Below, in pieces: positions 2,879 to 39,834 of a stretch of DNA of 64,000 nucleotides. The notes beneath the pieces were generated by a model. The model was not told the DNA's origin, searched no databases, and was given only the letters and a program-made list of their open reading frames with translations. The translations under genes and the position numbers were made by a program. Origin of the DNA: Gammaproteobacteria bacterium (GTDB lineage: Bacteria; Pseudomonadota; Gammaproteobacteria; Pseudomonadales; Pseudohongiellaceae); NCBI GenBank assembly GCA_029245395.1, contig JAQWPL010000024.1, forward strand, positions 90,887 through 154,886, in the 5' to 3' direction. Position 1 is the first letter of the stretch. Each line of letters begins with the position of its first letter.

Positions 2879-3274
2879 ATGAAAATCCTGACTACGGCCG
2901 CGATACTTCTGGGCTTGAGCTCATTGATCGCTACACCATCTCTTGTTTTGGCACACCATTCCGTCGGCGCCACGTTTGATCCGCAAGCAACAGTTACGCT
3001 GGAAGGCACCGTGACCAAAATTGACTGGTTCAATCCTCATATCTGGATATACATTACTGTTGATGGCAGCACGGAAGAATACCAGTGTGAAGGTTCCAGC
3101 CCGAACTCCTTGCGTCGGCGGGGCTGGTCCAAGGATTCTCTCAATCCAGGCGACCATGTTACAGTGGAGGGACTGAAGGCCAGGAATGACCCTTACAGTT
3201 GCTATGCCCGTTCCGTAAAACTTGCCGACGGTAAACAGCTATTTTCAGGAAACGCCTCGGAGCTTGGTCAATGA
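2879..3274 (+). CDS. Secreted N-module protein (DUF6152-like by recollection); predicted mature N-terminus HHS
   Basis: Signal peptide ending VLA then HHSVGATFD. Shared motifs WFNPHIWIY and LRRRGWSKDSLNPGDHVTVEG. Paralogous to 14821-15246 and to the N-terminal parts of 17338, 25915 and 38704. Confidence 0.85.
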   Translation: MKILTTAAILLGLSSLIATPSLVLAHHSVGATFDPQATVTLEGTVTKIDWFNPHIWIYITVDGSTEEYQCEGSSPNSLRRRGWSKDSLNPGDHVTVEGLKARNDPYSCYARSVKLADGKQLFSGNASELGQ

Positions 3275-4044
3275 GCAAACATGTCTTGAAAGCGATCACT
3301 TTGTCGGGCGCAGTGCTAACCCTCTGCACCCTGGTGTCGTCAGCAGCATACTCCCAGTCGCAGGACATTCCCCGGTTGGCCGACGGCAAGCCTGATTTCA
3401 ACGGCATCTGGGACCGTCCACGGGTTGGTAACATTACCAGGGATGTGCAGGGCTGCGGCTCTGGTAGCGTGGGATGCAGCTCGATATCATCCGGACCATT
3501 GGCATTCACGCCCGAAGGCCTGGCAGCTCATGAAGGCCCGAAAATAGATTATCCTGGCCGTTGCCTGCCCTGGGGTTACACCCGGGCTTACCATACAACC
3601 TACCCGATCATGTATGTGCAAACAGCAAAGGTTTTTGCGGTCCTGTTTGAATCGAATAACATCTTTCATATCGTGCCCACAGACGGCCGTGAGCATCCTC
3701 CTGAAGTCGAATCCACATGGATGGGCAAGTCATTCGGCCACTACGAAGGTGACACTCTGGTCATTGATTCCCGAGGGTTCAATGGCTTGTCCTGGATCGA
3801 CAACGGCGGCGAACATCCTGTCAGTGAAGAAATGCATATCACAGAACGTATCAGTCACATTGATGCCGACACCCTGCAATACCATATCACCCTCGAAGAT
3901 CCCAAGTTTTACTCCGAGCCCATAGTGAACACCCGGGTCTTCGTGCGAATGCCTGATGATACCGAACTCTATGAATACTGGTGCATGGAAAACAACAAGG
4001 CACTGATGGACGGTCTGCTTCCCGATACCATATTGACGGAGTAA
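3271..4044 (+). CDS. Secreted C-module protein of the same two-module family
   Basis: ATGA overlap with the upstream N-module gene. Signal peptide, then DGKPDFNGIWDRP, RCLPWGY, GKSFGHYEGDTLVIDSRGF, ITERISHIDADTLQYHITLEDP and EYWCMENN. These motifs recur in seven other copies. Confidence 0.85.
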   Translation: MSKHVLKAITLSGAVLTLCTLVSSAAYSQSQDIPRLADGKPDFNGIWDRPRVGNITRDVQGCGSGSVGCSSISSGPLAFTPEGLAAHEGPKIDYPGRCLPWGYTRAYHTTYPIMYVQTAKVFAVLFESNNIFHIVPTDGREHPPEVESTWMGKSFGHYEGDTLVIDSRGFNGLSWIDNGGEHPVSEEMHITERISHIDADTLQYHITLEDPKFYSEPIVNTRVFVRMPDDTELYEYWCMENNKALMDGLLPDTILTE

Positions 4045-4049
4045 CGGTC

Positions 4050-5021
4050 ATGACCATGAACAATCAATTCTGTCTGCTCCGGTCCATCCATTTCCGCCTC
4101 CTGGCAGCAGGACTGATTGTCAGTCTCTGGTCAGTGACCGCACCGGCTCAGGAAAATACTTCCTATTCAGACCCTGGCACGTTTCCGGTTCACAACATGG
4201 AGACCATCGCCCTGAAAGACAATCTCCGCGGCACCGAAGTCCTGGTTCGAGTGTACTACCCGGAAGGCGCAGGTCCGTTTCCTGTTATCGCTTTCTCTCA
4301 TATGAATGGTGGTAACAAGGATATGTTCAGTGAAATAGGCACGCATTGGGCCAGCCATGGTTTTGTGGCCGTGCATTCAAGTCATGATGATACTGGCGTC
4401 ACCATGGCCCCCAACGGTGGAGGCATGCAACCGTCGGAACAAAAGGTTCGCGACCGGTTGCGCGACGTAATCGTAGTCTTTGATGCGCTCGATCAAATCG
4501 AGCGCGATGTTCCCGCCCTGGCGGAAAAACTTGATCGTGAGAAGCTGGCTGTTGCGGGACACTCTTATGGCTCATTTATCTCATTTATTGCTGGCGGTGT
4601 GACCATCGATATTGGTGGCGAAACAAATACAAATCTCGGCGATTCCCGTGTCAAATGTATTCTGCCAATGTCACCTTCCGGACCTGGTGATTACGGATTG
4701 AGTGATGCAAGCTGGCGCAACCTGGCTATGCCAACGCTAATTTTTAACGGCACCAACGATGCGCGGGCCGGGCGTGCAGAAGACTGGCGTATGGAACCTT
4801 ACCGGTTGAGCCCCGAAGGTAACAAATTTCAAATTATTATCGAAGGTGCTACTCACCGTGAGTACGGTGGAGATATACCCGGTGATGCACCAAAATATGT
4901 CAAGGCTGCATCAGCGGCTTTCTTTGATTTCTGTCTGAATGGAACCGCTGAAGGGAAATCCTATCTACAAGGTGGTTTCGACGAATTTGCCGATGGTGCG
5001 GCGACGATCTCCTTTAAATAG
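4050..5021 (+). CDS. Exported alpha/beta hydrolase (dienelactone hydrolase / PAF-acetylhydrolase-like)
   Basis: Signal peptide ending TAPAQE; nucleophile elbow VAGHSYGSF (GxSxG). The track ORF starts at 3981 inside the upstream gene; ATG 4050 follows the upstream stop. Confidence 0.75.
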   Translation: MTMNNQFCLLRSIHFRLLAAGLIVSLWSVTAPAQENTSYSDPGTFPVHNMETIALKDNLRGTEVLVRVYYPEGAGPFPVIAFSHMNGGNKDMFSEIGTHWASHGFVAVHSSHDDTGVTMAPNGGGMQPSEQKVRDRLRDVIVVFDALDQIERDVPALAEKLDREKLAVAGHSYGSFISFIAGGVTIDIGGETNTNLGDSRVKCILPMSPSGPGDYGLSDASWRNLAMPTLIFNGTNDARAGRAEDWRMEPYRLSPEGNKFQIIIEGATHREYGGDIPGDAPKYVKAASAAFFDFCLNGTAEGKSYLQGGFDEFADGAATISFK

Positions 5022-5123
5022 CGAAATTTCGCTGCACAGTAATTGTAGCGAGTTCTGACAGGTACATTTCTTGTAGGTTGTATTTTGACCTATTCAATTA
5101 TCAAAATCGTTAAGGTACAAACC

Positions 5124-5870
5124 ATGAAAAAAATTAGCCTATCTTTTATAGCTGTATTACTGCTGTTATCAGGATCATTGCAGGCATTGACCCTTGCTGA
5201 ATTGAGTGCAGCACTGAGTAATTCCGACACTAGAGCCGAAGCTGATAAAGTCAGAGATGCTGGCCGCAAACCAGCTGAAGTAGTCAATTTTCTGGGTATA
5301 GAAGAAGGCATGACTGTCATTGATTTGGTCGCAGCTACTGGCTATTACACTGAAGTGTTGTCACATGCAGTAGGCGCGTCTGGCAAGGTGTATATGCAAA
5401 ACTCTCCAGCATCACTTACGGGTGACCGCGGAACGCGCACGGCGGCAGCAATTGACGCTCGGTTGGCCAATAATCGACTCGCCAATGTTGAAAGTTTGAA
5501 CCGGGATTTTGCAGATTTGGGATTATCACCTAACTCGATAGATGCAGCGATTATCGCTCTGGAAATACATGAGTTAACCAGATCCAGTGATCCAGATGCA
5601 GCCGGTAATTTTCTCGCCTATATTAGAACAGTGCTGAAACCTGGAGGAATACTTGGAGTTGTTGACCATGCGGGTAATCCTGGTAGTGATAATGGCGCTA
5701 TCCACCGCGCAGATGAAGAGCAGATTGTAGGGCTTGCTGAAGCTGTAGGTTTTAGTGTGGTTGGAACATCGGACCTATTGCGTATGCCAGAAGATGATCG
5801 TACAACGGCGGTTTTTGGTCCGGATATTCGTGGCAAAACTGATCGCTTCCTTTTGAAATTACAAAAGTAA
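5124..5870 (+). CDS. Class I SAM-dependent methyltransferase-like protein with an N-terminal signal peptide
   Basis: MKKISLSFIAVLLLLSGSLQA signal. VIDLVAATGYYTEVL resembles motif I and LKPGGILGVVDH the post-I/II region. ATG 5124 preferred over the track's TTG at 5085. Confidence 0.7.
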   Translation: MKKISLSFIAVLLLLSGSLQALTLAELSAALSNSDTRAEADKVRDAGRKPAEVVNFLGIEEGMTVIDLVAATGYYTEVLSHAVGASGKVYMQNSPASLTGDRGTRTAAAIDARLANNRLANVESLNRDFADLGLSPNSIDAAIIALEIHELTRSSDPDAAGNFLAYIRTVLKPGGILGVVDHAGNPGSDNGAIHRADEEQIVGLAEAVGFSVVGTSDLLRMPEDDRTTAVFGPDIRGKTDRFLLKLQK

Positions 5871-8843: not shown

Positions 8844-9210
8844 GGTTGACTGCGTGGTAGGTTTTCAAAAGTGAAATTAACCAGAAAATTATTCACTGAA
8901 AACCATTCTATTAAGAATGTGCGTCAGTCTATTCTCTTCAAAGACAACTTGAAAGCGGATGGGTTAATGCCGCGAAAGCGAAGCGACCACAGTTAATGAC
9001 TGCGGATTGCACTGCTCAAATCAAAGCGTGCAGAGTAAATTTAATATCCCATAGAAAGGTATACGTGCAATCGTCAGGCATCAAATAATCAATGCTCATA
9101 GCAATTACAGCTTTTGCCAGGTTATCAATTGCTGGACTACTCGGATTTTCCTGTTTATTCTTATTTGCTCATATTAAAAAAAATTCAGATAGCACGCGAG
9201 GATATTGCGT

Positions 9211-12200
9211 ATGAATAGCCGGACTCCCGGAGTAACTGTCTTAAACAATGAGGCAGAACCCCGCATAAAAGTGGCAGATCAAGCCACAATCGACGGCTGT
9301 GAAGCCGTGGCTCGTGTGGCCTACAAGGTCAATGAAGTCTGTATTATCTATCCAATTACCCCTGCCTCACCCATGGGTGAATATGCTGATCAATGGGCTG
9401 CGCAAGGAAAAACCAATATTTGGGGCGTAGTTCCTGATGTAGTTCAAATGCAGAGTGAGGCCGGCGCAGCAGGATCCGTGCATGGCGCGCTACAAACCGG
9501 CTCGCTGACCACAACATTTACGGCCTCCCAGGGGCTACTACTGATGATCCCCAATATGTACAAGATTGCGGGTGAACTCACTTCCACAGTAGCTCATATT
9601 GCCTCGCGCTCCCTTGCTGCCCAGGCCTTGTCAATTTTCGGAGATCACCAGGATGTCATGGCTGCACGGCAGACTGGCTTTGCCATGTTGTGTTCCAATT
9701 CAGTGCAAGAAGCCCAGGATTTTGCTCTCATCAGCCAGGCCGCGACGCTTGAAAGCCGTGTTCCCTTTGTACATTTTTTCGACGGATTTAGAACGTCCCA
9801 TGAGATCAATACCATTGATCTGGTGGATGACGAACAAATAGAAGGAATGATAGATCATAAGCGAATTCATGAGCACCGTGCCCGCGCCCTGAATCCAGAA
9901 AATCCCTTCATACGCGGTACAGCACAGAATCCAGATACTTACTTCCAGGCCCGGGAGACTGTTAACCCGTTCTATAACGCTATACCTAAAATTGTGCAAG
10001 ACCATATGGACCGCTTTGCTGGTTTGACTGGCAGGGAATATCAGGTGTGTGAATATTTCGGTGCGCCGGATGCAGAGAGGGTGATTGTCACAATGGGTTC
10101 CTCTTGTGAAGTGGTCAAGGAAACGCTCGACTATCTGGTGCTTTCCGGAGAGACCAAGCTAGGTGTGATTATTCCTCGCCTTTACCGCCCATTCCCCGGA
10201 AAAATGCTGGCCAGCATGATTCCTGCTACCTGCAAGACTATCGCAGTGCTTGATCGCACCAAGGAGCCCGGTGCAGGAGGAGAGCCACTATATAAGGATG
10301 TGGTCACTGCCCTGTTCGAAGCCCATACAGACGGCGAACTGGCCTGTGAGAGTATGCCGGTGATAACCGGTGGTCGTTATGGTCTGTCTTCCAAGGACTT
10401 TACGCCCGCCATGGTCAAGGGTGTATTTGATGAACTTGCCAAAGAGCGCCCCAAAAACCATTTCACTGTGGGCATTATTGATGACGTGACTCATACCAAT
10501 ATTGACTACGATCCCACTTTCATCGTCGAGCAACCAGGCGTTTATTCCGCCATGTTCTACGGACAGGGTGGAGACGGCACAGTGGGTTCCAATAAGAACA
10601 CTGTGAAGATCATTGGCAAGGCCGGTTCTCTCCAATCCCAGGCCTTCTTTTATTACGATTCTAAGAAAGCCGGTTCCCAAACCATTTCCCATCTGCGTTT
10701 TGGCCCCCGCAAAATCGAAGCACCGTACTACATTCAAAAAGCTGATTTCGTCGCCTGTCACCTGTTCAGTTATCTCTCCAAAACTGATGTTCTGGAATAT
10801 GCTGCGCCAGGTGCCACCTTTCTGGTTAACAGTACCCATGGCCCCGATGAAATCTGGGACAAGTTGCCCCGTGAAGCGCAGCGGGACATCATCGACAAAC
10901 AATTAAAATTTTATGTGATCGACGCCTATAACGTGGCGGGTGAGGCAGGTCTGGGCAGGCGTCTGAGTACCGTGATGCAGGCTTGTTTCTTTGCTATTTC
11001 CAGCGTACTGCGGCCGGACGAGGCGATTAAGAAAATCAAGGAAGAAATTCACAATACCTTTATCAAGAAAGGCGAGAAAATTGTCGAGATGAATTACGTA
11101 GCAGTGGATATGGCGCTGGCAAATATGCACAGAGTGGAGGTGCCGCAATTAATTACCAGCCTCTTCGATATGCCGCCTCCCGTCAGGGTAGGAGCACCCG
11201 AATTCGTGCGCAACGTGGTCGGACCGCAGATCGCTGGTAAGGGCGATCAGTTACCTGTGAGCATGCTGCCTGTAGACGGCACCTATCCGTCCGGTACCAC
11301 GGCCTGGGAAGTGAGTGATCTCACCCTGGAAGTTCCGGTTTGGGAACCCGATATCTGTGCTCAATGCGGCAATTGCGAAATCGTTTGTCCGCATGCCGTA
11401 ATACGAATGAAAACCTATGAACAGGATTCTCTGGAAGAGGCACCCGATGCATTCAAGTCAGTCCGGCTCAAGGGTCGAGGCATCGACCCCGATCAGCGCT
11501 ATACCTTGCAGGTCGCAGTGGATAATTGCACAGGTTGCGGGCTCTGTGTGGCCGCCTGTCCTGTGGACAGTCATCCCGATAAGCCGGGCATGAAGGCCAT
11601 CAACATGGCCTTAAAAGATCCCATTGTTGACGAGGAAAGAGAATCCTGGGATTTCTTCCAGACTCTGCCCCAGCGTGAACGCGGTGACCTCACCGGAATG
11701 CGTATGCGTGAAACGCAACTTATGGAACCTTTATTTGAATTCTCCGGGGCATGTGCAGGCTGTGGTGAGACCCCTTACCTCAAGCTGTTGACTCAGCTTC
11801 ACGGCGATCAATTGTTTGTTGCCAATGCTACTGGATGCTCGTCAATATTCGGTGGCAATCAGCCAACAACACCCTGGTCCAAGAATGCCGCAGGGCGCGG
11901 TCCTGCCTGGTCCAACTCACTGTTTGAGGATGATGCTGAGTTTGGCTATGGCTTCCGCGTGAGTCTGGACAAATTGCGCGATTATGCGCGTATGGCTCTG
12001 AAAGATCTGGCACCAACTGTGGGTGAAGGCCTGGTCACTGAGATCCTGACGGCGTCTCAGGAAAGCGGTACGCAGCTTGAAGCCCAGCGCGATCGAATCG
12101 TAGAGCTACGCAAACGTTTGGTGGGTACTCCTGATCCCAGGGCGTTGGATTTGCATGCACTTGCCGATCACTTACTTGACCGAGTCGTGTGGATCGTCGG

Positions 12201-12828
12201 TGGTGACGGCTGGGCTTATGACATTGGCTTTGGTGGTCTTGACCATGTACTGGCCAATGATCGGGATGTCAATATTCTGGTTATGGATACCGAGGTGTAC
12301 TCCAACACTGGCGGGCAAAATTCGAAATCCACGCCACGCGCTGCAACGGCAAAATTTGCTACAGGAGGAAAATCTGTGGCAAAGAAAGACATGGGCATGT
12401 TGGCCATTGATTACGGTCATGTCTATGTGGCACAAATAGCCTTCGGTTCCGATCCGAAGCAGACAGTTCGTGCCATGCAGGAAGCGGCAGCGCACAAGGG
12501 ACCGTCAATCATCATTGCTTACGCCACCTGTATCGCCCATGGCTTCGATCTGACTTATACGGTTGAACACATGAGATCCGCGGTGGACAGTGGTTACTGG
12601 CCACTTTATCGCTATGATCCCAATCTCGCCAAGTTAGGTCGCAACCCCATGCAACTCGATTCGGGTGAGCCCAACATAACTTTCAAAGATTATGCCATGT
12701 CAGAGAATCGCTACCGTTCCCTGGCGCGGGCCAACCCGGAACATGCAGACGAGCTCATGGATCTGGCCGAGGCCGATGTACTCAAACGCTGGCAGGCAGT
12801 AAAGCGTCTGGCTCGGGGAGTTGAATAA
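9211..12828 (+). CDS. nifJ: Pyruvate:ferredoxin (flavodoxin) oxidoreductase, single-polypeptide type
   Basis: About 1200 aa. AIYPITPASPMGE..MQSEAGAAGSVHGALQTGSLTTTFTASQGLLLMIPNMYKIAGEL; two ferredoxin motifs CAQCGNCEIVCP and CTGCGLCVAACP; TPP region GGDGWAYDIGFGGLDH. ATG 9211 behind GAGGA; the track starts at TTG 9205. Confidence 0.95.
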   Translation: MNSRTPGVTVLNNEAEPRIKVADQATIDGCEAVARVAYKVNEVCIIYPITPASPMGEYADQWAAQGKTNIWGVVPDVVQMQSEAGAAGSVHGALQTGSLTTTFTASQGLLLMIPNMYKIAGELTSTVAHIASRSLAAQALSIFGDHQDVMAARQTGFAMLCSNSVQEAQDFALISQAATLESRVPFVHFFDGFRTSHEINTIDLVDDEQIEGMIDHKRIHEHRARALNPENPFIRGTAQNPDTYFQARETVNPFYNAIPKIVQDHMDRFAGLTGREYQVCEYFGAPDAERVIVTMGSSCEVVKETLDYLVLSGETKLGVIIPRLYRPFPGKMLASMIPATCKTIAVLDRTKEPGAGGEPLYKDVVTALFEAHTDGELACESMPVITGGRYGLSSKDFTPAMVKGVFDELAKERPKNHFTVGIIDDVTHTNIDYDPTFIVEQPGVYSAMFYGQGGDGTVGSNKNTVKIIGKAGSLQSQAFFYYDSKKAGSQTISHLRFGPRKIEAPYYIQKADFVACHLFSYLSKTDVLEYAAPGATFLVNSTHGPDEIWDKLPREAQRDIIDKQLKFYVIDAYNVAGEAGLGRRLSTVMQACFFAISSVLRPDEAIKKIKEEIHNTFIKKGEKIVEMNYVAVDMALANMHRVEVPQLITSLFDMPPPVRVGAPEFVRNVVGPQIAGKGDQLPVSMLPVDGTYPSGTTAWEVSDLTLEVPVWEPDICAQCGNCEIVCPHAVIRMKTYEQDSLEEAPDAFKSVRLKGRGIDPDQRYTLQVAVDNCTGCGLCVAACPVDSHPDKPGMKAINMALKDPIVDEERESWDFFQTLPQRERGDLTGMRMRETQLMEPLFEFSGACAGCGETPYLKLLTQLHGDQLFVANATGCSSIFGGNQPTTPWSKNAAGRGPAWSNSLFEDDAEFGYGFRVSLDKLRDYARMALKDLAPTVGEGLVTEILTASQESGTQLEAQRDRIVELRKRLVGTPDPRALDLHALADHLLDRVVWIVGGDGWAYDIGFGGLDHVLANDRDVNILVMDTEVYSNTGGQNSKSTPRAATAKFATGGKSVAKKDMGMLAIDYGHVYVAQIAFGSDPKQTVRAMQEAAAHKGPSIIIAYATCIAHGFDLTYTVEHMRSAVDSGYWPLYRYDPNLAKLGRNPMQLDSGEPNITFKDYAMSENRYRSLARANPEHADELMDLAEADVLKRWQAVKRLARGVE

Positions 12829-12830
12829 AG

Positions 12831-14660
12831 ATGGAAGCTAATAAGAAAGAAGTAGCACGAAACGGCAAAGCGATACCACAAGGGCCTAATCGCCAGCCGC
12901 ATTTCTCTTTGTCACAGGAGCTCGGTGTGGCAAACCAGCCCAAGGATATGGACTGGCTCGACAAAAACATTCCTTGCCAGGCTGCCTGTCCCGCCCATAC
13001 CCGGATTCCTGATTACCTGGGCGAAATAAGTCTTGGCAATTACGACGCCGCTTATTTAATCAATTTGGTCGACAACGTGTTCCCCGCCGTGTTGGGCCGT
13101 GTCTGTTCTCGCCCTTGTGAAGATGTCTGCCGCCATGGCCGCGAGGGGCTTGGCGAACCGGTTGCTATTTGTTTTTCAAAACGTGCAGCGGCGGACCTGG
13201 GTAGCAACAAACTTGTTGTACTTGAGCCACTGTATCCCGAGACCGGCAAAACTGTCGCTATTATCGGTGGAGGTCCTGCAGGGCTTGCCGCAGCCAGGGA
13301 ACTGGCTCTGTTCGGGCACAAGTCAACAGTGTTCGAAAAATATTCAATACCTGGTGGCATGATGAACCAGGGTATTCCCGAATTTCGACTGCCACGAGAA
13401 ACTATTGACAAGGAAATCGATCAGATCCGCGAGTTGGGTGTGGAGATTCTTTGCAACCAGAACATTGGCAAGGACGGCGACACCACTATAGAAGAACTTT
13501 TGAAGTCACACGATGCCGTTGTTATTGCCGCCGGGACACTGTCACCAAATATTCTCGATCTGCCTGGCAAAGACAAGGGTGGCATCCTGCATGGACTTGA
13601 TTTTCTCCTGGAAGCAAACGAAACCGGAAAATCTGATATCGGCAAGAATGTCATTGTTGTGGGAGGAGGATTTACCGCCATGGACTGCGCCCGAACAGCC
13701 ATCCGCCTGGGCTCTCCATCCAGTGTCTTTTACCGGCGTTCGCGCGATGAAATGTCAGTGACGAAAGATGAGATCGATGAACTCATCCATGAAAAAATTC
13801 CTCTTGAGCTCATGGTTGGTCCGGTCTCCTATAACGGCGACGGTGATGTCAACAGCATGCGTTTCATCCGCAACGAGCTTGGGGAACCAGACGAAGGTGG
13901 CCGGCGCCGTCCGGTGGCAGTTGAAGGTAGTGAATTTGATGTGGATGTTGACACCATACTACTGGCTACAGGCCAGTGGCAGGACACCACCTGGCTGGAT
14001 GCATCAGTTGCTCCCAACGTGCTTGATAAAGATGGCTGGATTCCAGGCGGTTCACCCGTTACTACCAATCATCCGGGATTATTCCTGGCGGGGGATTATT
14101 CCATCGGCGCTTCGACTTTGATCCAGGCTATTGGTCACGCCAAGGAATGTGCGCGTTCAGTAGATGAATACCTTATGGGCGAGACGCGTAAAATGGATGT
14201 TGCCCAGATTGGCAACTCGTTACAAACTGGCCGTGTGCCCGAAATGGACGACATTCCGCGGCAGATAATCCCTACCATTGCTATCGAAGATCGTACCCTG
14301 CGCGCTGAAGTGGAAACAGGTTATGATCCGGAACTTGCCACAAAGGAAACCTTGCGCTGCTATCTGTGCCATTACAAATTTGAGATAGACAACGACTATT
14401 GTATTTATTGTGAAAAATGTCTCGATGTGAAACCTCACGAAAACTGCATCGTGCGCATTGATGATCTGGACTACGATGATGAAGATCGTATCGCCGGCTA
14501 CACGCGAGCGAAGGATCCGACTCCATTCAAATACAATCTTCTTTACATAGACCAGGATCAGTGCACTCGCTGCGGTCGTTGTGAATCAGTCTGCCCCGTG
14601 GAATGTATTTCCATTCAGAAAGTGACAAGGGATGTGACACGCCCGTGCGATGTTGACTAG
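12831..14660 (+). CDS. GltD-like NAD(P)H-dependent FAD oxidoreductase with C-terminal 4Fe-4S ferredoxin domain
   Basis: N-terminal Fe-S cysteines (CQAACPAH, CSRPCEDVC); dinucleotide fold VAIIGGGPAGLAAA and a second VIVVGGGFTAMD; C-terminal CIYCEKC and CTRCGRCESVCP. Starts 2 nt after the PFOR stop. Confidence 0.8.
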   Translation: MEANKKEVARNGKAIPQGPNRQPHFSLSQELGVANQPKDMDWLDKNIPCQAACPAHTRIPDYLGEISLGNYDAAYLINLVDNVFPAVLGRVCSRPCEDVCRHGREGLGEPVAICFSKRAAADLGSNKLVVLEPLYPETGKTVAIIGGGPAGLAAARELALFGHKSTVFEKYSIPGGMMNQGIPEFRLPRETIDKEIDQIRELGVEILCNQNIGKDGDTTIEELLKSHDAVVIAAGTLSPNILDLPGKDKGGILHGLDFLLEANETGKSDIGKNVIVVGGGFTAMDCARTAIRLGSPSSVFYRRSRDEMSVTKDEIDELIHEKIPLELMVGPVSYNGDGDVNSMRFIRNELGEPDEGGRRRPVAVEGSEFDVDVDTILLATGQWQDTTWLDASVAPNVLDKDGWIPGGSPVTTNHPGLFLAGDYSIGASTLIQAIGHAKECARSVDEYLMGETRKMDVAQIGNSLQTGRVPEMDDIPRQIIPTIAIEDRTLRAEVETGYDPELATKETLRCYLCHYKFEIDNDYCIYCEKCLDVKPHENCIVRIDDLDYDDEDRIAGYTRAKDPTPFKYNLLYIDQDQCTRCGRCESVCPVECISIQKVTRDVTRPCDVD

Positions 14661-14820: not shown

Positions 14821-15246
14821 TTACCTGGTTGGTGCCGCACCAACACCGTTAGAGCTCGCATTGAGTTCTGTGCCGTCGGGTAGCGTGATGGCACCACCGT
14901 TGGCCCGGTTCTCACCATCACGGGAACGATAGCCAAGGACGGTAACTTGCGTCCCGGTGGGCAGGGAGTTGCGATTCCAACCCCGTCGAATCAGTGCATT
15001 GGGGGCGCCGCCTTCAATTGCCCATTCCTGAACCTCACCACTTTCAGTGGTAACGTTGATATAAATGTAGGAATGCGGATTGGTAAATACCAGGCGTATG
15101 ACTTCACCTCGCAGTTGTATTGGCTGATTGATATCGAACTCAGACGAAAATGAATGGTGGGCAAAAACCGGAAACGTGGTTGCCATGCCTGACATAAAAA
15201 TTAGCACCATGATTTTTAATGCAGGAATGTTATCTATGCGTGGCAT
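14821..15246 (-). CDS. Secreted N-module protein (paralogue of 2879-3274)
   Basis: Signal peptide ending VFA then HHSFSSEFD; FTNPHSYIY; LIRRGWNRNSLPTGTQVTVLG. ATG 15246 behind AGAGGG; the track ORF extends to 15327 into the upstream gene. Confidence 0.8.
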   Translation of the reverse strand: MPRIDNIPALKIMVLIFMSGMATTFPVFAHHSFSSEFDINQPIQLRGEVIRLVFTNPHSYIYINVTTESGEVQEWAIEGGAPNALIRRGWNRNSLPTGTQVTVLGYRSRDGENRANGGAITLPDGTELNASSNGVGAAPTR

Positions 15247-16166: not shown

Positions 16167-17351
16167 ATGGTCTTTCACTCTAGTAATAATTCCAGTATTA
16201 ATGGAACAAGTAAGGTCACAAAGAAATCCTGTACCGTTCTAGGACTAACCCTTTTATCTATGGGGCTTGCTGTTGCCCAGCAGGCTATTTCGCAGAATGA
16301 TGATGCCCTGGTTCCTGCTGAACGTACTGCTGCAGCCGTCGTCGATTCCAGTTGGGAAGTGCCACGTTTTTCCTGGGGAGATCCAAATCTGGAAGGTACC
16401 TTCACCAGTCGTGACATGAGCGGCATACCCATGGCAAGGCCCAGTCAATTTGGTACACGCGATACATTGAATGCGGAAGAATATCGACAACGTGCCGCCG
16501 GTGGTTCGGGAGGGCTTGGCTCATTACGAGGCGGAGATGAGTTTGAAGGAGAAGCGCGACTGCAACTCAGTGCACTGGATTCCTCTGAAGTCGGTACGCG
16601 TGTCTTTGGCTATACCTCTTATATCATTGATCCCGCCGATGGCCGGATGCCGGCCCTGACTCCAGAAGGCGAGCAGCGTCAGTCTGCAAATCGGCGAGGT
16701 CAGGCGGCGGGTCCATTTTTTACCACGGCAGACTTTTCCTACTATGACCGTTGCATCACGCGCGGTGTCACAGGGTCGATTATGCCCTCCCTATATGGCG
16801 ATGCCATGCGCATTGTGCAGTCACCCACTGAAGTCGCTATTACCTATGAGATGCTCCATGAGACACGGATTATTCCCCTTGGTGAGGGGGCTTTTCCTGA
16901 TGCGCAAATCAAACAATATATGGGTGCGTCCATTGGCCACTTTGAAGGCGACACCTTGGAGATTGAAACCCGAAATTTAACCGACAAACTAAGGGTTGGT
17001 CGCATGCCCCACAGTGAGGACGCGGTGCTTACGGAACGAATCACGCGCATTGATCCGGACATGATCAACTACTCTGTAACCGTAGACGACCCGAGAACCT
17101 TTGTGAGTCCCTGGACTTTTCGCATGACGCTGACTACACAACCAGACTACGAAGTACTCGAATATTCCTGTCATGAAGGAAATTTCTTTATAGCCACTGC
17201 ACTCAGAGCAGAAAAGAACTATCAGGACAGTGTAGCCCAGGCCCTTGCCCGCGGTGAGGCGATCCCCGAACGTAATGTTGCAGGCGGTGGTTCTGACATC
17301 TATCTGGCGCCATCATCCGCTGAGGCTGTGGATATCAATGCTGATCAATAG
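16167..17351 (+). CDS. Secreted C-module protein with an extended N-terminal region
   Basis: Divergent from 16120. WGDPNLEGTFTSRD, GASIGHFEGDTLEIETRN, LTERITRIDPDMINYSVTVDDP, EYSCHEGN. Confidence 0.8.
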   Translation: MVFHSSNNSSINGTSKVTKKSCTVLGLTLLSMGLAVAQQAISQNDDALVPAERTAAAVVDSSWEVPRFSWGDPNLEGTFTSRDMSGIPMARPSQFGTRDTLNAEEYRQRAAGGSGGLGSLRGGDEFEGEARLQLSALDSSEVGTRVFGYTSYIIDPADGRMPALTPEGEQRQSANRRGQAAGPFFTTADFSYYDRCITRGVTGSIMPSLYGDAMRIVQSPTEVAITYEMLHETRIIPLGEGAFPDAQIKQYMGASIGHFEGDTLEIETRNLTDKLRVGRMPHSEDAVLTERITRIDPDMINYSVTVDDPRTFVSPWTFRMTLTTQPDYEVLEYSCHEGNFFIATALRAEKNYQDSVAQALARGEAIPERNVAGGGSDIYLAPSSAEAVDINADQ

Positions 17352-24574: not shown

Positions 24575-25609
24575 TTAGGCTGATTCAGAATTTTGCCTTT
24601 CATTCAATTTTTTAATTGCCCAGCGCGCTGAAACTCTCGGTTTGTCTGATTGATGATCAACAAGCCTGTCTTCTCCTAATTCTGTAACACGAAGTTGCTG
24701 CGCCTCGACCATCGCCTTGTCCTCTGCCAGGGCTACCTGAATTTCTTCCGTTAATTTTACCGTTGCAGCAGGATTGTCAGTTTCGTGTCCATTTGATACT
24801 GACCAAAAATAAAAACAAGACGTGTCAGTTTCAGGGGTAATCGTGTGAAATATTCGCATGTCAAAACGTGGCGCACCCGCAGTTTTTCGGTCTTCACCGG
24901 CAGGTACACCACCGGAATACTGAATCACAGTAGAGGGAGCGACAAATTCAAATTCTTGCCACCGATCAATCCGCTCTGGTAGCTGCACGCAATTATTGTA
25001 TGTTTCCGGAGGAGGGGAGTTTTGCATAAATCGATTAAGGACTATGCCGTTGTCGGTAGTGGATAAGTCGTTTTGCGCAACCATATGTACATCGGGTGAA
25101 GACCCGCCCACTGAGCCTGAATGAAGGTAAGATAAATGGGTGGCATCCAGTAGATTATCAATCAGCATAATATAATGAGACTTTACGGGGAGCACGTCAT
25201 GGTAATGAGGCCAATTCTTTGTGTCATTATGAAAGGGATGATCAGGAATTAAACTTTCGTCAGCCTTTTCCGGGGAGCCTATCCATATCCAAAGCATTTG
25301 ATCTTTTTCAATTAATGGGAAACTGTCTACGCGCGCTTTTGCCGATATGTTTTTTTGGTTAGGAATTTCTACACAAGCACCGCTACAGTCAAATACAAGG
25401 CCGTGATAATTACAACGAAGTCCATTTTCTACTACTGCTCCTAAACTAAGCGGTGCGCCCCTATGACTACAGCTATCCAACAGAGCATTCGCTTTGCCTT
25501 CCAGTGTTCGATACAAAACAATAGGTTTGTTACATATCCTTCTAGCGATTGGATTTGTAGTAATCTCATCTGCCCAGGCAGCTAAATACCATGAATTATT
25601 GACTATCAT
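24575..25609 (-). CDS. Rieske [2Fe-2S] non-haem iron oxygenase, VanA/phthalate-family type
   Basis: CSHRGAPLSLG...CNYHGLVFD Rieske motif; N-terminal WYLAAWADEI typical of VanA-like oxygenases. No reductase gene adjacent. Confidence 0.85.
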   Translation of the reverse strand: MIVNNSWYLAAWADEITTNPIARRICNKPIVLYRTLEGKANALLDSCSHRGAPLSLGAVVENGLRCNYHGLVFDCSGACVEIPNQKNISAKARVDSFPLIEKDQMLWIWIGSPEKADESLIPDHPFHNDTKNWPHYHDVLPVKSHYIMLIDNLLDATHLSYLHSGSVGGSSPDVHMVAQNDLSTTDNGIVLNRFMQNSPPPETYNNCVQLPERIDRWQEFEFVAPSTVIQYSGGVPAGEDRKTAGAPRFDMRIFHTITPETDTSCFYFWSVSNGHETDNPAATVKLTEEIQVALAEDKAMVEAQQLRVTELGEDRLVDHQSDKPRVSARWAIKKLNERQNSESA

Positions 25610-25914: not shown

Positions 25915-26946
25915 ATGGAAATTAACCATCTCAATCCGATTTTTAAATTTGTCATCTTAACGGCTTCACTGCTGTTGTTTCCTTTCAGTGCCATTGCTCA
26001 CCATTCGCATGCAAATCTTAATGCCAATGATATTCAGACTCACCGTGGTGTCGTAGAACAATACGGCTGGGGTATGCCGCATGTCTATATAAAGGTAAGC
26101 GCACCCAATTCAAAGGGTGAAATCGTTTTATATAATATCGAGTTGGTCAATCCGCCTGGCATGCTACAACGGGGCTGGGATAAAAACTCATTGAAACCAG
26201 GAGACTTGATTACATGGGAAGGTACAGCTGACCATAATCCAAATCGTTATTACTCTGGCCTGAATTGGGCCGAAAAGGCTGACGGCAACCGACTCACGAT
26301 GACAGTCAGGCCTGCGGAAACTAATCCATCAATTGATTTTTCCGGTCTCTGGATGAGAGATCTGCGAGGTGGTAAGCCCTTTTATACGCCCCCTGAAGAT
26401 TGGCCCTACAGCGAATTGGGAAAACAAATGGTCGCTAGCTTTAATGAAAACGACAACCCTCAGGTTTCCTGTATTAACCCGGGCATTCCCAAAGCCACAT
26501 TATTACCTTATCCCATGCACATTACCCGGCAAGATGAGCAAACTTTGATTTTCAAATATGAATTGCGTGAACATCAAAGAACCATCGTATTGGGTCGGCC
26601 CAGGTTACAAGAAGAACCCTCTGTTTTAGGAACTTCAGTTGCACGCATGGGAGACAATAAAATTATTATAGAAACAGATAATTTTGTTGCAGATAAATGG
26701 GGAACACATACAGGTGTCAACTCCAGTGCACAGAAACGTCTGCGTGAAGAAATTTCATTATCAGAAGATGGTAAATCCCTGAATATTATGATGGTAGTAA
26801 CGGACCCGGTATATTTTACTCAACCGGTTATTATCGATTATCACATGAAGAAAATGCCAGACCGTGAATTGATTCAGTTGCCTTGTACGCTAGAGAACTC
26901 AAGGTTTTTTCTCGATGCTGGTTTAATCGGCCGTGTATCGGAGTAG
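25915..26946 (+). CDS. Secreted fused N-module + C-module protein
   Basis: Signal ending AIA then HHSHANLN; WGMPHVYIK; LQRGWDKNSLKPGDLITWEG. C-part: IDFSGLWMRD, SCINPGIP, QLPCTLEN. Confidence 0.8.
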   Translation: MEINHLNPIFKFVILTASLLLFPFSAIAHHSHANLNANDIQTHRGVVEQYGWGMPHVYIKVSAPNSKGEIVLYNIELVNPPGMLQRGWDKNSLKPGDLITWEGTADHNPNRYYSGLNWAEKADGNRLTMTVRPAETNPSIDFSGLWMRDLRGGKPFYTPPEDWPYSELGKQMVASFNENDNPQVSCINPGIPKATLLPYPMHITRQDEQTLIFKYELREHQRTIVLGRPRLQEEPSVLGTSVARMGDNKIIIETDNFVADKWGTHTGVNSSAQKRLREEISLSEDGKSLNIMMVVTDPVYFTQPVIIDYHMKKMPDRELIQLPCTLENSRFFLDAGLIGRVSE

Positions 26947-27099: not shown

Positions 27100-28749
27100 A
27101 TGAGTTTTAAGAAAACACAGTCATGGTCACACATTAATCGACGCCGCTTTCTGAAAATGGGAGCCAAATCTACCGCTGGACTGGCAATGGGTGGGCTTGC
27201 CCTGCCTGGTATGACACAAGATATGCGTCTGACCACCATTGGTGGTATTGCCAGGACGCGGCACGGCCGGGTACGTGGATTACTGAAGGAAGGGGTGCAA
27301 CAGTTTTGGGGAGTCCCTTATGGATCTTCAACTGGTGGAGCCAACCGATTTATGCCGCCACAAGCACCGAAACCCTGGTCTGGCGTGAATGACCACTTCC
27401 AGGTTGGCCAGAATGCTCTGATACAACCGGGAACCAGTGAACCGGCTCCGGTCGTGACGGCATTGAACCGACTCAGTGAACAAGGTGAGGATTGTCTTAG
27501 TGTCAATATCTTCACCCCAGCACTGGATAATGCCGCACGCCCAGTGATGGTGTGGATGCATGGTGGGGGATTCTCGGCTGGGGCAGGCAACTACCTGTTA
27601 TATGACGGCACCAATTTGGCGAAAAAAGAAGATGTGGTTGTGGTTTCAGTTAACCATAGGCTGAATATTTTCGGTTTCTTACATCTGGCAGATATAGGTG
27701 GAGATAAATGGGCGCAATCCACCAATATGGGCGTGCAGGATCTGGTTGCTACCCTGCAATGGGTGAAAGACAATATTGAAAACTTTGGTGGTGATCCGGA
27801 CAGGGTCACCATCTTTGGTCAGTCTGGCGGCGCTGGAAAAACCAACACGGTTATGGCGATGCCGTCAGCGGAAGGGCTGTTTCATCGTTCTGTTGCACAA
27901 AGTGGTTCCGCGTTCAGAGGCACATCGGCAGACGATGCCAGTGAAGCCACCGAACGCTTTCTCGGCAAGCTGGACCTCCGGAACAACCAGCTCGACCAGT
28001 TACAAACCATGGGCTACCGGCAAATTCAGGATGCTTTCTACAGTGAGCCTGCTATTCGCGGTCTTGGCTCAGGGCCAGTGATTGATGGCACTATTCTTCC
28101 TCGCCATCAGTGGGATCCCACAGCGCCATCATATTCTGCCAACGTTCCGTTGATGATGGGTTCCACAGAAACCGAAAACGGCTGGGTAGGGCCTCCGCCT
28201 TATGAGCTATCTGAAGCCGATATGCTTAATCGTTTTGTCACCCGATTGGCGAATAATGATGATGCCAGTGGTGGTCAGTTGCTTGCGCTGTATAAACGTG
28301 TTTATCCAGAAATGCGCAACCAGATGCTTTGGCTGACCGCGGAATCGGACAACACGCGGCGCAGGAATGCCCATACCATGGGTCGACTAAAGTATGAGCA
28401 GGGTACCTCAGAAAGCTATCTGTATTTCTTCGACTGGCATTCCCCGGTGCACAATAATCGTATGGGTTCTTACCATACTCTGGATATTCCCTTTGTGTTT
28501 TACAACATGGATCTGGGCGCATCAATGATGGGAGCGTCACAGGAGCGTTATCAGCTTGGACATGTCATGAGTGCGGCCTGGGCAGCCTTTGCCAGAAATG
28601 GCAATCCGAATCATGCCGACATGCCAACCTGGCCTGCGTTTAATCCCAATGAGTTTCCAACCATGATGTTTGGGGATGAAGTGCGGATGGTTAATGATCC
28701 TAATCGGGAGACGCGTTTGGCGTTGGATGCTTTGCGCGCCAACAGCTGA
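27100..28749 (+). CDS. Carboxylesterase/lipase type B family, Tat signal
   Basis: RRRFLKMG twin-arginine; EDCLSVNIFTP; VWMHGGGF; nucleophile IFGQSGGAG. Confidence 0.9.
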   Translation: MSFKKTQSWSHINRRRFLKMGAKSTAGLAMGGLALPGMTQDMRLTTIGGIARTRHGRVRGLLKEGVQQFWGVPYGSSTGGANRFMPPQAPKPWSGVNDHFQVGQNALIQPGTSEPAPVVTALNRLSEQGEDCLSVNIFTPALDNAARPVMVWMHGGGFSAGAGNYLLYDGTNLAKKEDVVVVSVNHRLNIFGFLHLADIGGDKWAQSTNMGVQDLVATLQWVKDNIENFGGDPDRVTIFGQSGGAGKTNTVMAMPSAEGLFHRSVAQSGSAFRGTSADDASEATERFLGKLDLRNNQLDQLQTMGYRQIQDAFYSEPAIRGLGSGPVIDGTILPRHQWDPTAPSYSANVPLMMGSTETENGWVGPPPYELSEADMLNRFVTRLANNDDASGGQLLALYKRVYPEMRNQMLWLTAESDNTRRRNAHTMGRLKYEQGTSESYLYFFDWHSPVHNNRMGSYHTLDIPFVFYNMDLGASMMGASQERYQLGHVMSAAWAAFARNGNPNHADMPTWPAFNPNEFPTMMFGDEVRMVNDPNRETRLALDALRANS

Positions 28750-28762
28750 ATATAACGGTTTA

Positions 28763-29362
28763 ATGAATAAAAAATCGAAAAGAGGAACACAAATGCTCAG
28801 TTCTCAACGTTCAATTAATAGATTGCGACGCCTAACATTCGCGCTATGCGGAGGCATCTTGTTGGCGATCAGTAGCGTGCTGCCTGTTGCTGCGCAAGTA
28901 CCGATCACAACGCAGGAAACACTCCTGGACCGTCTGCAAATAGAAGACATGTTGCTCGCCTATTATTATGGCTTTGAGGTGGACGAAGGGCATGACTGGA
29001 CCGCACTGTATACGGACGATGCTGTGCTGGATATAAACGGATTGGTGTATGAAGGGAAAACAGAGATACAAGGGCTATACGACAACTACGGAGAAATCTC
29101 TCCAGAGGAAGACGTGCCTGGTAAGGTCCATGTGCTAATGACCAATCCCCGTATCATCGTCAGTGGCAACACGGCAACAGCGCATATGATCTACACGGAA
29201 ATCATGAATGATACGGTATACCTGGCACCACGCTTGATAGAGCAGGGCCGCGAAGATACTGAATTCAGAAAAATAAATGGCAGCTGGTTTATCACCAAAC
29301 GCCTCATCACCCAGGACGGCGGCTTACCACCGGCTTACTTTGATACTTATAAGCCTCGTTAG
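28763..29362 (+). CDS. Exported SnoaL-like / NTF2 family protein
   Basis: Signal peptide. LDRLQIEDMLLAYYYGFE and WFITKRLI are typical of the SnoaL_4 pattern. Confidence 0.6.
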   Translation: MNKKSKRGTQMLSSQRSINRLRRLTFALCGGILLAISSVLPVAAQVPITTQETLLDRLQIEDMLLAYYYGFEVDEGHDWTALYTDDAVLDINGLVYEGKTEIQGLYDNYGEISPEEDVPGKVHVLMTNPRIIVSGNTATAHMIYTEIMNDTVYLAPRLIEQGREDTEFRKINGSWFITKRLITQDGGLPPAYFDTYKPR

Positions 29363-29370
29363 TGTCATGC

Positions 29371-29520
29371 TTGGGAATCGAACGCGACCTGTATACCTTA
29401 CACTACGAAGCGACTATCGATGATCCCGGCGCATACACAGAGGCCTGGACCGTCGCGATGGATATCAACCGGGATCGGGAAGGAGAACTGATCGAATAAA
29501 TCTGTCAGGAAAACAACTAG
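29371..29520 (+). pseudogene. 3'-terminal fragment of a C-module paralogue
   Basis: Translates to GIERDLYTLHYEATIDDPGAYTEAWTVAMDINRDREGELIE*ICQENN*. This aligns with ERITRIDPDMINYSVTVDDPRTFVSPWTF...EYSCHEGN, but it has no N-terminal part and an internal stop at 29497. Confidence 0.7.
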
Positions 29521-32285: not shown

Positions 32286-32290
32286 CGAAT

Positions 32291-38058: not shown

Positions 38059-38102
38059 GTTTGATAGTGGCAAGACAAAAAAGCTTCGACATGGCTCCGT
38101 TT

Positions 38103-38520
38103 TGACTGGACTTCCCAGCCTTTGCTAGACACCAAATAGCGTTAAAATGTAACTCTATGAGAGGTGTTTATGAAAGGCAAGCGATACACAGAAGAATTTA
38201 AAATCGAAGCAGTAAAACAAGTGACTGACCGAGGTTATTCGGTAGCCGATGTCGCACAGCGACTCGGCACCACCACCCACAGCCTGTATGCCTGGCTAAA
38301 GAAATATGGCCAGCCAAACCCCCGGCAAGCGGATAAGTCTGAAATAGAAGCTGAGAATGCTCGGCTCAAGGCAGATTTGCGACGCATGACCGAGGAGCGC
38401 GACATTCTAAAAAAGGCCGCCGCGTACTTTGCCAACGACCCCGGGTAAAGTACGTTTTTATTCGTGATCATCGGCATGAGTTTTCCATTGAGGCCATGTG
38501 CCGTGTTTTTAATTTGAGTG
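38103..38520 (+). mobile_element. IS3-family insertion sequence remnant (left end, orfA, first ~25 codons of orfB)
   Basis: TGACTGGACTTCCC left end is IS3-like. An orfA follows. After the orfA stop another frame reads KYVFIRDHRHEFSIEAMCRVFNLSG (orfB N-terminus) and then similarity stops. Confidence 0.75.
38164..38448 (+). CDS. IS3 family transposase OrfA (HTH)
   Basis: MKGKRYTEEFKIEAVKQVTDRGYSVADVAQRLGTTTHSLYAWLKKYG plus a leucine-zipper-like tail. Confidence 0.85.
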   Translation: MFMKGKRYTEEFKIEAVKQVTDRGYSVADVAQRLGTTTHSLYAWLKKYGQPNPRQADKSEIEAENARLKADLRRMTEERDILKKAAAYFANDPG

Positions 38521-38703
38521 GATGTCCTATTTAAAATTTTAATCCATCATTTGATTAGGGGTAAAACAAGGAATCAAGGGGAACCAGCTACCAGTATGCT
38601 GTTGATGTGTGGACTCGTTACTGTTGCAGGTTTATGCTCCCTTTTATACCTGTATTAATAGAGTAGACGGCAAGAAATGTACGTTGATTTAATAACGGAG
38701 AAA

Positions 38704-39834
38704 ATGATGAAACGCTTTTTAGCCAAATCTGTATTTTCAGCACTGACACTGACAATGGTGCTCAATAGCGTAAATGTCCTGGCACACCATTCCTTTGCCG
38801 CAGAGTTCGATGCTGACTCAATCGGTCACTTCCAGGGGGTTATTACCGAGGTGCGTTTCACCAATCCTCATGTTCGCTATCGGATTGAAGTGGAAAGTGA
38901 TGATGGCATCACTGAATCCTGGGAGCTGCAAGCTCGCAGTATTACCTCGCTAAGAGCGGAGGGCTGGTTAAAGGACAGTGTCAATGTGGGCGATGTGGTC
39001 TCGGTAGAGGGGCAGTTAGGCAGGAACGGCACAAAAAAACTTTTTATACGAGGTATTCAAATACAAGGTGGAGCGGGTTTAGGCAATATGGCGCGCAGTG
39101 AAAATGAAAATACCGGAAGCCAGGATGATCTTGTCGTCGCCAATGCGCAGGGTGGTTATGGTTTTGGGGATATTGAAACGAATTATCCTGTCGATATCAC
39201 CGGGTACTGGAGCAACCGATACAAATTTCAAACCACAGTAGATGACCTTCAACCGAAGCCGGTGCCGTTAACCCCTGAGGGCCGGGCGCTCTATGAAAGT
39301 AACGATAAATATGATGATCCGGTACTGCGCTGCCTCGCCTACGGTTTACCACGCACGTTTGGCAATCCTTACAACATGACAGTCTACGATGCAGGTACTC
39401 ATTACATGATGTTGCATGTTGATCAAAATTCCCCGCGCCGAGTCTGGATGGATGGAAGGTCACCCGATGCCAATACCCCAGCAACGTCCAATGGCTATTC
39501 GGTGGGACGCTGGGAAGGCAGGGAACTGTATATTGATACAACCCACTTATTAGGAGGCTGGCTGGATGGTTCCGGTTACCCCATGAGTGGCGAAGGTACA
39601 CGCATTGAAGAGCGTTTCACCATTGCCGCAGATGGCCTCACCATGGACCGAGTCATGACAATTCATGATCCGTATTACACTGCACCTTTGACGCGAGTAC
39701 GTGGTTCAGCGCGGGGCACTAACCTGGATGTTTATCAGCAGGGAGCCTGCGATCCCACCGGCTACTTTTCAGATCTGCGGGAAGCCGGCACGTTGGGTGA
39801 ATACCTAAATCCGGAACAATACCTGGCTCAATAA
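38704..39834 (+). CDS. Secreted fused N-module + C-module protein
   Basis: Signal ending VLA then HHSFAAEFD; FTNPHVRYR; LRAEGWLKDSVNVGDVVSVEG. C-part: VDITGYWSNR, RCLAYGLP, GYSVGRWEGRELYIDTTH, IEERFTI, QGACDP. Confidence 0.8.
   Translation: MMKRFLAKSVFSALTLTMVLNSVNVLAHHSFAAEFDADSIGHFQGVITEVRFTNPHVRYRIEVESDDGITESWELQARSITSLRAEGWLKDSVNVGDVVSVEGQLGRNGTKKLFIRGIQIQGGAGLGNMARSENENTGSQDDLVVANAQGGYGFGDIETNYPVDITGYWSNRYKFQTTVDDLQPKPVPLTPEGRALYESNDKYDDPVLRCLAYGLPRTFGNPYNMTVYDAGTHYMMLHVDQNSPRRVWMDGRSPDANTPATSNGYSVGRWEGRELYIDTTHLLGGWLDGSGYPMSGEGTRIEERFTIAADGLTMDRVMTIHDPYYTAPLTRVRGSARGTNLDVYQQGACDPTGYFSDLREAGTLGEYLNPEQYLAQ

Follow-up and report, generated by a model that had tools for sequence, protein, structure and literature searches.

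The protein system described here is encoded in a 64,000-nucleotide stretch of DNA (hereafter, the window) from a Gammaproteobacteria bacterium of the Pseudohongiellaceae (assembly GCA_029245395.1, contig JAQWPL010000024.1), and consists of two exported modules, an N-module and a C-module, that occur as separate genes or as a single fused gene. The closest described family is Pfam DUF6152 (PF19649), to which the N-modules of the window belong. This entry offers a name only, without function or structure, and the partner C-module is neither described there nor provided with a model. NCBI already labels the fused proteins 'DUF6152 family protein', and a literature search found no paper on DUF6152 or PF19649.

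Three further groups of proteins invite comparison. In every known class of histidine brace, the protein is exported and His1 is unmasked by signal-peptide cleavage directly before it (PMC10952591). The N-module shares with the histidine-brace proteins (lytic polysaccharide monooxygenases (LPMOs), CopC, PmoF1/PCuAC, YcnI and X325/Bim1) an invariant His1, here predicted to be exposed, and a further invariant His, but differs from them in that a second His, at position 2, is invariant too. The folds also differ, those of the histidine-brace proteins being immunoglobulin-like, cupredoxin-like or DUF1775 and that of the N-module being predicted as an oligonucleotide/oligosaccharide-binding (OB) fold, with no sequence relation. 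Foldseek and Pfam gave no match of the N-module to the classes AA9–17, CopC, PCuAC or DUF1775; the likeness comes from sequence alone, and the N-module is not filed here as a histidine-brace protein. The best structural matches of the C-module were found among the calycins (FABP/CRABP, lipocalins and tardigrade SAHS proteins), with which it shares a lipocalin-like G-x-W near the start. It exceeds these by about 100 residues and has an elaborated N-terminus, two invariant Cys and an acidic cluster that is fixed; the likeness is weak (E about 1e-3, TM about 0.5), and the module belongs to no lipocalin or FABP sequence family. Both predicted folds are represented among periplasmic metal-binding proteins, CusF being a periplasmic OB-fold copper chaperone and ZinT/YodA a calycin-like barrel with a His-rich N-terminus. 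The present modules show no sequence similarity to either, the two folds are here separate partner modules, and the context is one of catabolic enzymes, not metal transport. Literature searches returned nothing relevant on a histidine brace with an OB fold, nor on pyrroloquinoline quinone (PQQ) together with Acidobacteria and lipocalins.

Pairing of the N- and C-modules

Hidden Markov models (HMMs) built from the window copies were run on a six-frame translation of the whole 64 kb, and exactly five N-modules and seven full C-modules were found, with no match of either kind between 40 and 64 kb. An earlier note on this DNA, made from the sequence alone, had counted five N-modules and eight C-modules at the same positions; all the open reading frames (ORFs) that it listed are present, and its eighth C-module is the relic described below. 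The homology that it had assumed among the C-modules was also borne out by pairwise BLASTP (down to E 1e-27 for a database size of 2e7 residues, at 22–38% identity). The modules are arranged in several ways (Table 1). N1 is joined to C1 by an ATGA overlap, as had been reported, the end of C3 and the start of F1 overlap by 14 nt, and C4, without an adjacent N-module, lies between a Rieske oxygenase gene and the gene of a metallo-beta-lactamase (MBL)-fold hydrolase. All nine module proteins of the window begin with a signal-like hydrophobic segment, in keeping with the signal peptides earlier ascribed to every copy. The longest ORFs begin slightly upstream for C2 (16168), C4 (24603), F1 (17245) and F3 (38677), and for these four the internal ATG starts of the earlier note are the more plausible. 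The presence of rpoD and dnaG at 51–55 kb indicates that the window DNA is chromosomal. F3 is 100% identical to P0121, a 'DUF6152 family protein' of a Gammaproteobacteria metagenome-assembled genome (MAG).

Pairing outside the window was evaluated from both sides. When one genome per GTDB species was searched with a C-module profile, 79 loci with 10-kb flanks were kept, mainly from Acidobacteriota (Bryobacterales, Vicinamibacterales and Terriglobia) with some from Gamma- and Alphaproteobacteria. These loci contain 143 C-modules and 59 N-modules, and for 55 of the 59 N-modules a C-module is no more than 600 bp away (N before C, 34; C before N, 16; divergent, 3; fused, 2). The converse set consisted of 80 metagenome loci anchored on the N-module, found with an N alignment of seven closer sequences and hence biased to N2-like modules. 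A same-strand C-module was present within 600 bp at 65 of these 80 (C before N, 53; N before C, 12), and only four loci with flanks of 900 bp or more on each side had no C-module. Three-gene cassettes, ordered C-C-N or N-C-C, are often seen, barrels of the C2-like and C3-like types both pairing with N2-like modules in C-C-N cassettes, and the ATGA overlap of module genes recurs at a second locus (L081). Among 390 fetched proteins, 252 have the architecture C, 120 N-C, 16 C-C and two C-N; one of those counted as C (P0301) has, in addition, a cytochrome c domain at its N-terminus (Cytochrome_CBB3, E 2e-15). N-C fusions of about 370 residues are common in Gammaproteobacteria and Hyphomicrobiales.

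The Rosetta-stone argument of the earlier note, that modules found both split and fused work together, thus stands, because the co-occurrence outside this genome is strong in both directions and N-C fusions are widespread; N and C are very probably functional partners. That they are instead independent modules that merely share operons, their fusions being accidental and without coupling, is extremely unlikely. Many C copies without an adjacent N-module, and the low predicted TM-score (pTM) of the fused model, would fit such independence, whereas the adjacency is seen in Acidobacteriota, Gamma- and Alphaproteobacteria, in both orders and from both anchor directions, four kinds of fusion exist, and ATGA coupling is present in the window as well as in L081.

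The multiplicity of copies is not peculiar to this genome, since at least two C copies (two to six) were found at 34 of the 79 C-anchored loci. The window paralogues are about 20–38% identical to each other, and the outside orthologues, present among the fetched sequences for every copy but F2 and N1, are 60–91% identical to their window counterparts, which indicates that the copies are old subfamilies. Recent tandem duplication was considered as an origin and rejected, as most copies (not F2 or N1) are far closer to outside orthologues than to window paralogues. One locus (L084) retains the divergent cassette in which N2 follows C2 on one strand and F1 follows C3 on the other, and another contig (L164) preserves nearly the whole window layout, including the MBL gene, the PSD/PSCyt, HXXSHH and ankyrin genes and an F3 orthologue.

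Table 1. Module copies and flanking genes in the window, with the identity of the best match outside the window among the sequences fetched
Feature	Position	Strand	Description	Best outside match
N1	2879–3274	+	Stand-alone DUF6152; signal peptide, mature start HHS; Pfam PF19649 E 2e-24; N-module HMM E 2e-57	47%; no close orthologue
C1	3271–4044	+	Stand-alone C-module, predicted calycin-like barrel, translationally coupled to N1; C-module HMM E 8e-88	91%
N2	14821–15246	-	Stand-alone DUF6152, downstream of C2; Pfam E 2e-32	74% (L084, same neighbours)
C2	15290–16120	-	Stand-alone C-module, upstream of N2; C-module HMM E 1.6e-88	83% (L084)
C3	16167–17351	+	C-module with N-terminal insert and C-terminal tail, divergent from C2; C-module HMM E 2e-81	80% (L084)
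F1	17338–18483	+	Fused N-C; DUF6152 E 8e-19 (residues 24–110); C-module HMM E 5e-73 on C-terminal part	70%
C4	23503–24564	-	C-module with C-terminal tail of about 120 residues; C-module HMM E 4e-73	66%
F2	25915–26946	+	Fused N-C, most divergent copy, upstream of carboxylesterase gene; DUF6152 E 1e-15; C-module HMM E 8e-78	Barrel part 27%, N part 37%; no close orthologue
C-module relic	29353–29520	+	Last ~50 residues, in-frame stop; C-module HMM E 6e-6, profile positions 171–207	
F3	38704–39834	+	Fused N-C; 30 bp upstream of PSD/PSCyt–HXXSHH–ankyrin operon	Barrel part 80%, N part 60%
Tannase/feruloyl-esterase family gene (MHETase-type)	1042–2619	-	Exported; Pfam Tannase E 1e-80; divergent from N1-C1	
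PETase/dienelactone-hydrolase-like gene	3981–5021	+	Flanks N1-C1 on the other side	
MBL-fold hydrolase gene	22619–23497	-	Exported; Lactamase_B E 7e-23; 6 bp downstream of C4	
Rieske VanA-like oxygenase gene	24575–25609	-	Cytoplasmic, no signal peptide; flanks C4	

Sequence and predicted fold of the modules

The earlier note had recognised no function for either module, and neither was found to fall into a characterised family, the N-module being DUF6152, of unknown function, and the C-module having no sequence match in Pfam, NCBIfam or the PDB. All five window N-modules matched PF19649 (E 1e-15 to 2e-32, 58–112 bits, against a curated gathering threshold of 27 bits); no other Pfam match was obtained for them, and the N-module profile found no meaningful relative among PDB sequences. 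The most conserved features are two adjacent His (HH) and the His of an Asn-Pro-His (NPH) turn, both present in 274 of 279 N-modules drawn from the window, 159 other loci and the 390 proteins; the remaining five comprise three truncated pieces and the two C-N fusions. The residue preceding HH is Ala in 264 of these modules and Gly in nine, and a position near the NPH turn is Glu in 144 and Gln in 122 (95% Glu/Gln), recalling the second sphere of LPMOs. In the 120 fused N-C proteins, HH was found at residue 17–39, after a hydrophobic segment and an A/V-x-A site, with Ala or Gly at position -1 in 120/120 and a small residue at position -3 in 117/120. Since the predicted AxA-type cleavage site directly precedes HH, the mature protein would begin with these two His.

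The two C-N fusions (P0338 and P0373) carry the DUF6152 domain at the C-terminus, where HH is absent and NPH is replaced by NPY or NPL. The His-less tail of P0338 is nevertheless still DUF6152 (Pfam E 7e-16, 58 bits, model positions 18–94), and its gene lies in a cassette (L167, 3136–5581) with a normal, HH-bearing N gene directly upstream. As the domain is internal in these fusions, no free N-terminal amine is possible, and the joint loss of HH and NPH suggests that the three His form one unit that needs the mature N-terminus. A search for relatives of the P0338 tail, intended to find further C-N fusions, gave no shared-word match. Whether the His set is a metal site is, on present evidence, evenly balanced. 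In an AlphaFold2 model of the fused F3 protein (predicted local distance difference test (pLDDT) score 79, pTM 0.61, with a low-confidence linker), the N part was matched by Foldseek to OB folds (SSB, PriB and the LysRS N-domain; E 4e-4 to 1e-2, target-normalised TM 0.55–0.70). The N-module is therefore predicted to adopt a five-stranded OB fold, a likeness at fold level only that implies no nucleic-acid binding for an exported protein.

The conservation of the C-module was assessed in 87 modules sharing less than 60% identity, from many phyla, with C1 numbering. The five signposts that had been read from the window copies turned out to be the most conserved columns of this set: the G-x-W start (G45, 100%; W47, 91%), the first Cys (C98, 100%), the block G152, S154, G156, W158 and G160 followed by T162-L163-V164, the E192, R193, D210 and P211 positions, and the C-terminal Cys (C238, 100%) with E235 and E240; Arg 133 is fixed as well. 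The two invariant Cys probably form a disulfide. An AlphaFold2 model of C1 (pLDDT 85, pTM 0.79) has 10 strands and gave weak calycin matches in Foldseek (SAHS, CRABP, FABP and nitrophorins, E 3e-3), and the barrel of the F3 model matched CRABP at E 3e-4 with TM 0.53–0.57 (overall TM for the C-module, 0.5–0.57). The C-module, of about 230 residues, is thus predicted to be a calycin-like (FABP/lipocalin-like) beta-barrel. No Pfam match was obtained for the window copies or for 48 members scanned singly, apart from a marginal Lipocalin_9 match (E 0.07) in P0287; NCBIfam gave no match for the nine window module proteins, and a PDB sequence search with profiles of C and of fused N-C returned nothing meaningful. 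A serine-hydrolase reading of G152-x-S154-x-G156 was rejected, since the motif lies in a predicted barrel strand (153–159) and no hydrolase Pfam match or fold was found; the best hydrolase-like fold match to C1, to class A beta-lactamases, has a TMq of 0.15 over about 65 aligned columns.

The C-module belongs to a large family. When 1.84 billion cluster representatives (50% identity clusters) were searched exhaustively with HMMER, 19,297 proteins matched at E <= 1e-3, 11,036 of them at E <= 1e-10, and the module is plentiful among soil Acidobacteriota and marine Gammaproteobacteria. More than 640 word-sharing relatives of C1, all labelled 'hypothetical', were retrieved, including Acidobacteriota proteins 50–60% identical to it. 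The tail of C4 (23503–23870, minus strand; …PEILAQYVGVY…) is common to a large C4-like subfamily of about 355 residues (P0342, P0360, P0371 and others), and its match to DUF3471 is marginal (E 0.2–0.3).

The fragment previously called a pseudogene was likewise detected by the C-module HMM (match 29353–29496) although it was absent from the training set. Its translation (…DDPGAYTEAWT…GELIE-stop-ICQENN-stop) places the in-frame stop inside the E-x-x-C-x-E-N-N motif, and it looks like a 3' remnant from which a rearrangement took away the first ~180 codons. Within 28670–29520 (plus strand), a SnoaL_4-domain protein with a long N-terminal extension stops where the relic starts.

Genomic context and candidate functions

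The modules of the window had been described as adjoining exported hydrolases or oxygenases. This holds for the hydrolases; the Rieske oxygenase next to C4 has no signal peptide. A Tat-signal carboxylesterase gene comes after F2, and molybdopterin oxidoreductases (one with a Tat signal) as well as MFS and TctABC transporters are also encoded near modules. A gene for a secreted protein with a signal-like N-terminus and no Pfam or PDB relative (18484–19371, plus strand) begins a single base past the F1 stop codon, F1 and this gene probably sharing a transcript. The operon downstream of F3 (39864–45321, plus strand) encodes a PSD/PSCyt protein (DUF1587/1595/1592/1588/1585, with a weak cytochrome c match), an HXXSHH protein (DUF1552) and a 565-residue ankyrin-repeat protein. 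The whole trio adjoins the F3 orthologue in L164, PSD and ankyrin genes lie near such orthologues in L082, L083 and L165, and in L166 only the ankyrin gene is nearby.

Neighbours within 4 kb were clustered at 159 other loci, with module positions masked on both strands so that antisense ORFs over C genes were excluded. PQQ dehydrogenases were the most frequent (17 of 159 loci, nine genes being on the same strand within 400 bp), followed by MBL-fold hydrolases (nine), TonB-like barrels (eight), DUF6644 proteins (seven), and ankyrin proteins and the tannase family (six each). Lactonase-like NHL/SGL proteins, amidohydrolases, a GMC oxidoreductase and an aldehyde dehydrogenase also recur. By a rough estimate, PQQ dehydrogenases appear to be several-fold enriched. 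The tightest arrangements, tannase-C-tannase or tannase-C with gaps of 18–93 bp, were found at L008, L011, L012 and L074; in Bryobacteraceae MAGs (L008, 8127–11907; L011, 8508–12311) a C1-like barrel gene is sandwiched between two tannase genes with gaps of 18–60 bp and no N-module. At L168 (6001–8420), the cytochrome c-C fusion P0301 is followed by C and then N, and genes for an MBL-fold hydrolase, a PQQ dehydrogenase and another cytochrome c lie alongside.

The reading favoured here is that the region holds paralogous sets of one two-part periplasmic protein system, in which one OB-fold N-module would team up with a single calycin barrel or with two, the parts being either separate chains or fused. 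With C98 and C238 as its staple, the barrel would hold a small organic ligand such as an aromatic acid, an alcohol or an ester product; a ligand that is aromatic or bears a carboxylate is suggested by the conserved Arg and Glu and by the likeness to FABP. The mature His-His, probably with the NPH His, would bind a metal, for which Cu(II)/Cu(I) in a histidine-brace-like site is the leading candidate by analogy, and the metal of this cap would act on or beside the barrel ligand, or else the complex would pass the ligand on. The complex would serve the exported neighbours, namely tannase-family and other esterases, PQQ dehydrogenases with c-type cytochromes, and MBL-fold hydrolases, and in some cassettes electrons may reach it via a cytochrome c that is fused to it or encoded nearby. 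The cytochrome c fusion and the PQQ dehydrogenase and cytochrome neighbours make a redox role plausible, and the conserved His-His tip hints at an undescribed metal-dependent periplasmic system. It is in this sense that we infer an N:C association, a metal and its identity, a ligand and a catalytic or redox role. The proposal as a whole, a metal-binding His cap working with a ligand-holding barrel in a periplasmic complex, is tentative, its chances being put at somewhat below even.

Several observations weigh against this proposal. Strand 1 of a canonical OB fold starts at the end opposite the loop between strands 1 and 2, so the three His may not form one site in a monomer, and their correlated loss was seen in two C-N fusions only. 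The pTM of 0.61 and the low-confidence linker of the fused model mean that no rigid N:C interface is predicted. The fold matches are weak, no Foldseek match of C1 reaching E 1e-3. No N-module lies within 10 kb at 35 of the 79 C-anchored loci, and 25 of 29 members of the C4-like subfamily are without an adjacent N; with so many copies having none nearby, C seems able to work without one. No neighbour family was present in more than about 20% of the loci, and some adjacency is to be expected from chance, as Acidobacteriota have very many PQQ dehydrogenases and TonB-type barrels.

A rather unlikely alternative is a passive carrier, in which the barrel, with or without its OB partner, shuttles hydrophobic or aromatic acids between exported enzymes and transporters (MFS, Tct or TonB-type) with no metal chemistry. 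Calycins are mostly binders, and FABP/CRABP hold carboxylates by a buried Arg; the nearest folds of the C-module are FABP/CRABP, R133 and R193 are conserved, and divergent paralogues lie beside different enzymes and near MFS, TctABC or TonB-like barrels, all of which would fit such a carrier. It would leave unexplained the invariant N-terminal His-His/NPH set, its joint loss in the C-N fusions and the cytochrome c fusion. The fixation of S154, E192, D210, E235, E240 and the two Cys across subfamilies only 22–30% identical would also be unusual for binders of different ligands.

A role as metallochaperone or scavenger, in which the His cap takes up an ion (Cu, Zn or another) in the periplasm and passes it to neighbouring exported metalloenzymes (cf. 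CopC, YcnI, PCuAC, CusF and ZinT), is quite improbable. The N-terminal His motif does resemble that of copper-trafficking histidine-brace proteins, and MBL-fold proteins, amidohydrolases and PQQ dehydrogenases provide metalloenzyme neighbours. However, no copper or zinc homeostasis family was found among the annotated neighbour clusters; metal transporters, CopA/B/C/D, Cus, Sco and multicopper oxidases were all missing from the recurrent neighbours, and at the sequence level the modules are unrelated to the ZinT, CopC, CusF and YcnI families. Five N- and seven C-modules within 37 kb would be a high copy number for a chaperone, and the tightest neighbours are tannase-family esterases and a carboxylesterase, which are serine hydrolases without a catalytic metal.

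A more specific form of the favoured reading would make DUF6152 a new structural class of histidine-brace-type copper centre on an OB fold, forming with its partner barrel or barrels a periplasmic oxidoreductase (oxygenase- or peroxygenase-like) for small aromatic or alcohol-derived substrates held in the barrel, with PQQ dehydrogenases and c-type cytochromes as its route of reduction. The parallel would be with LPMOs, whose activation is PQQ- or cytochrome-dependent, but here with soluble substrates; this reading is considered improbable.

Other genes of the window and significance

Some other genes of the window are of interest in their own right. A methyltransferase-like ORF (5085–5870, plus strand) has an apparent signal peptide (MKKISLSFIAVLLLLSGSLQA), an exported S-adenosylmethionine (SAM)-dependent enzyme being odd; most SAM-methyltransferase models score below their Pfam gathering scores on it, with Ubie_methyltran just above (21.5 against 20.1 bits). 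Among the exported catabolic enzyme genes lies an oxidoreductase pair (9205–14660, plus strand), consisting of a 1207-residue fused pyruvate/2-oxoacid:ferredoxin oxidoreductase and then a 609-residue FAD/NAD(P) Fe-S oxidoreductase (GltD/DPD-like). The protein encoded at 19717–20499 (minus strand) has a signal-like N-terminus, no Pfam or PDB relative and a TSP3-like Asp-rich repeat at its end (E 0.009). An exported 881-residue protein (45563–48208, plus strand) combines a G8 domain with a CEMIP-type beta-helix (Pfam E 1.6e-79), an architecture better known in animal hyaluronan-binding and -depolymerising proteins.

Judging by the sources searched, four features appear not to have been described before, namely the make-up of the system from two modules, the nameless barrel family, the cassette of the order C-C-N and the His signature at the N-terminus. 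The C-module is a large family (about 19,000 clusters at 50% identity) for which no family model, structure or literature was found, and its tie to DUF6152 merges two anonymous gene sets into one defined, testable system. If the system is only a carrier, the finding would still account for a partner, so far without annotation, that recurs beside tannase-family esterases and PQQ dehydrogenases. Should the His cap be a copper site, a new fold would join the short histidine-brace list, and an unrecognised periplasmic chemistry would be indicated in the breakdown of tannin-, lignin- or plastic-like esters.

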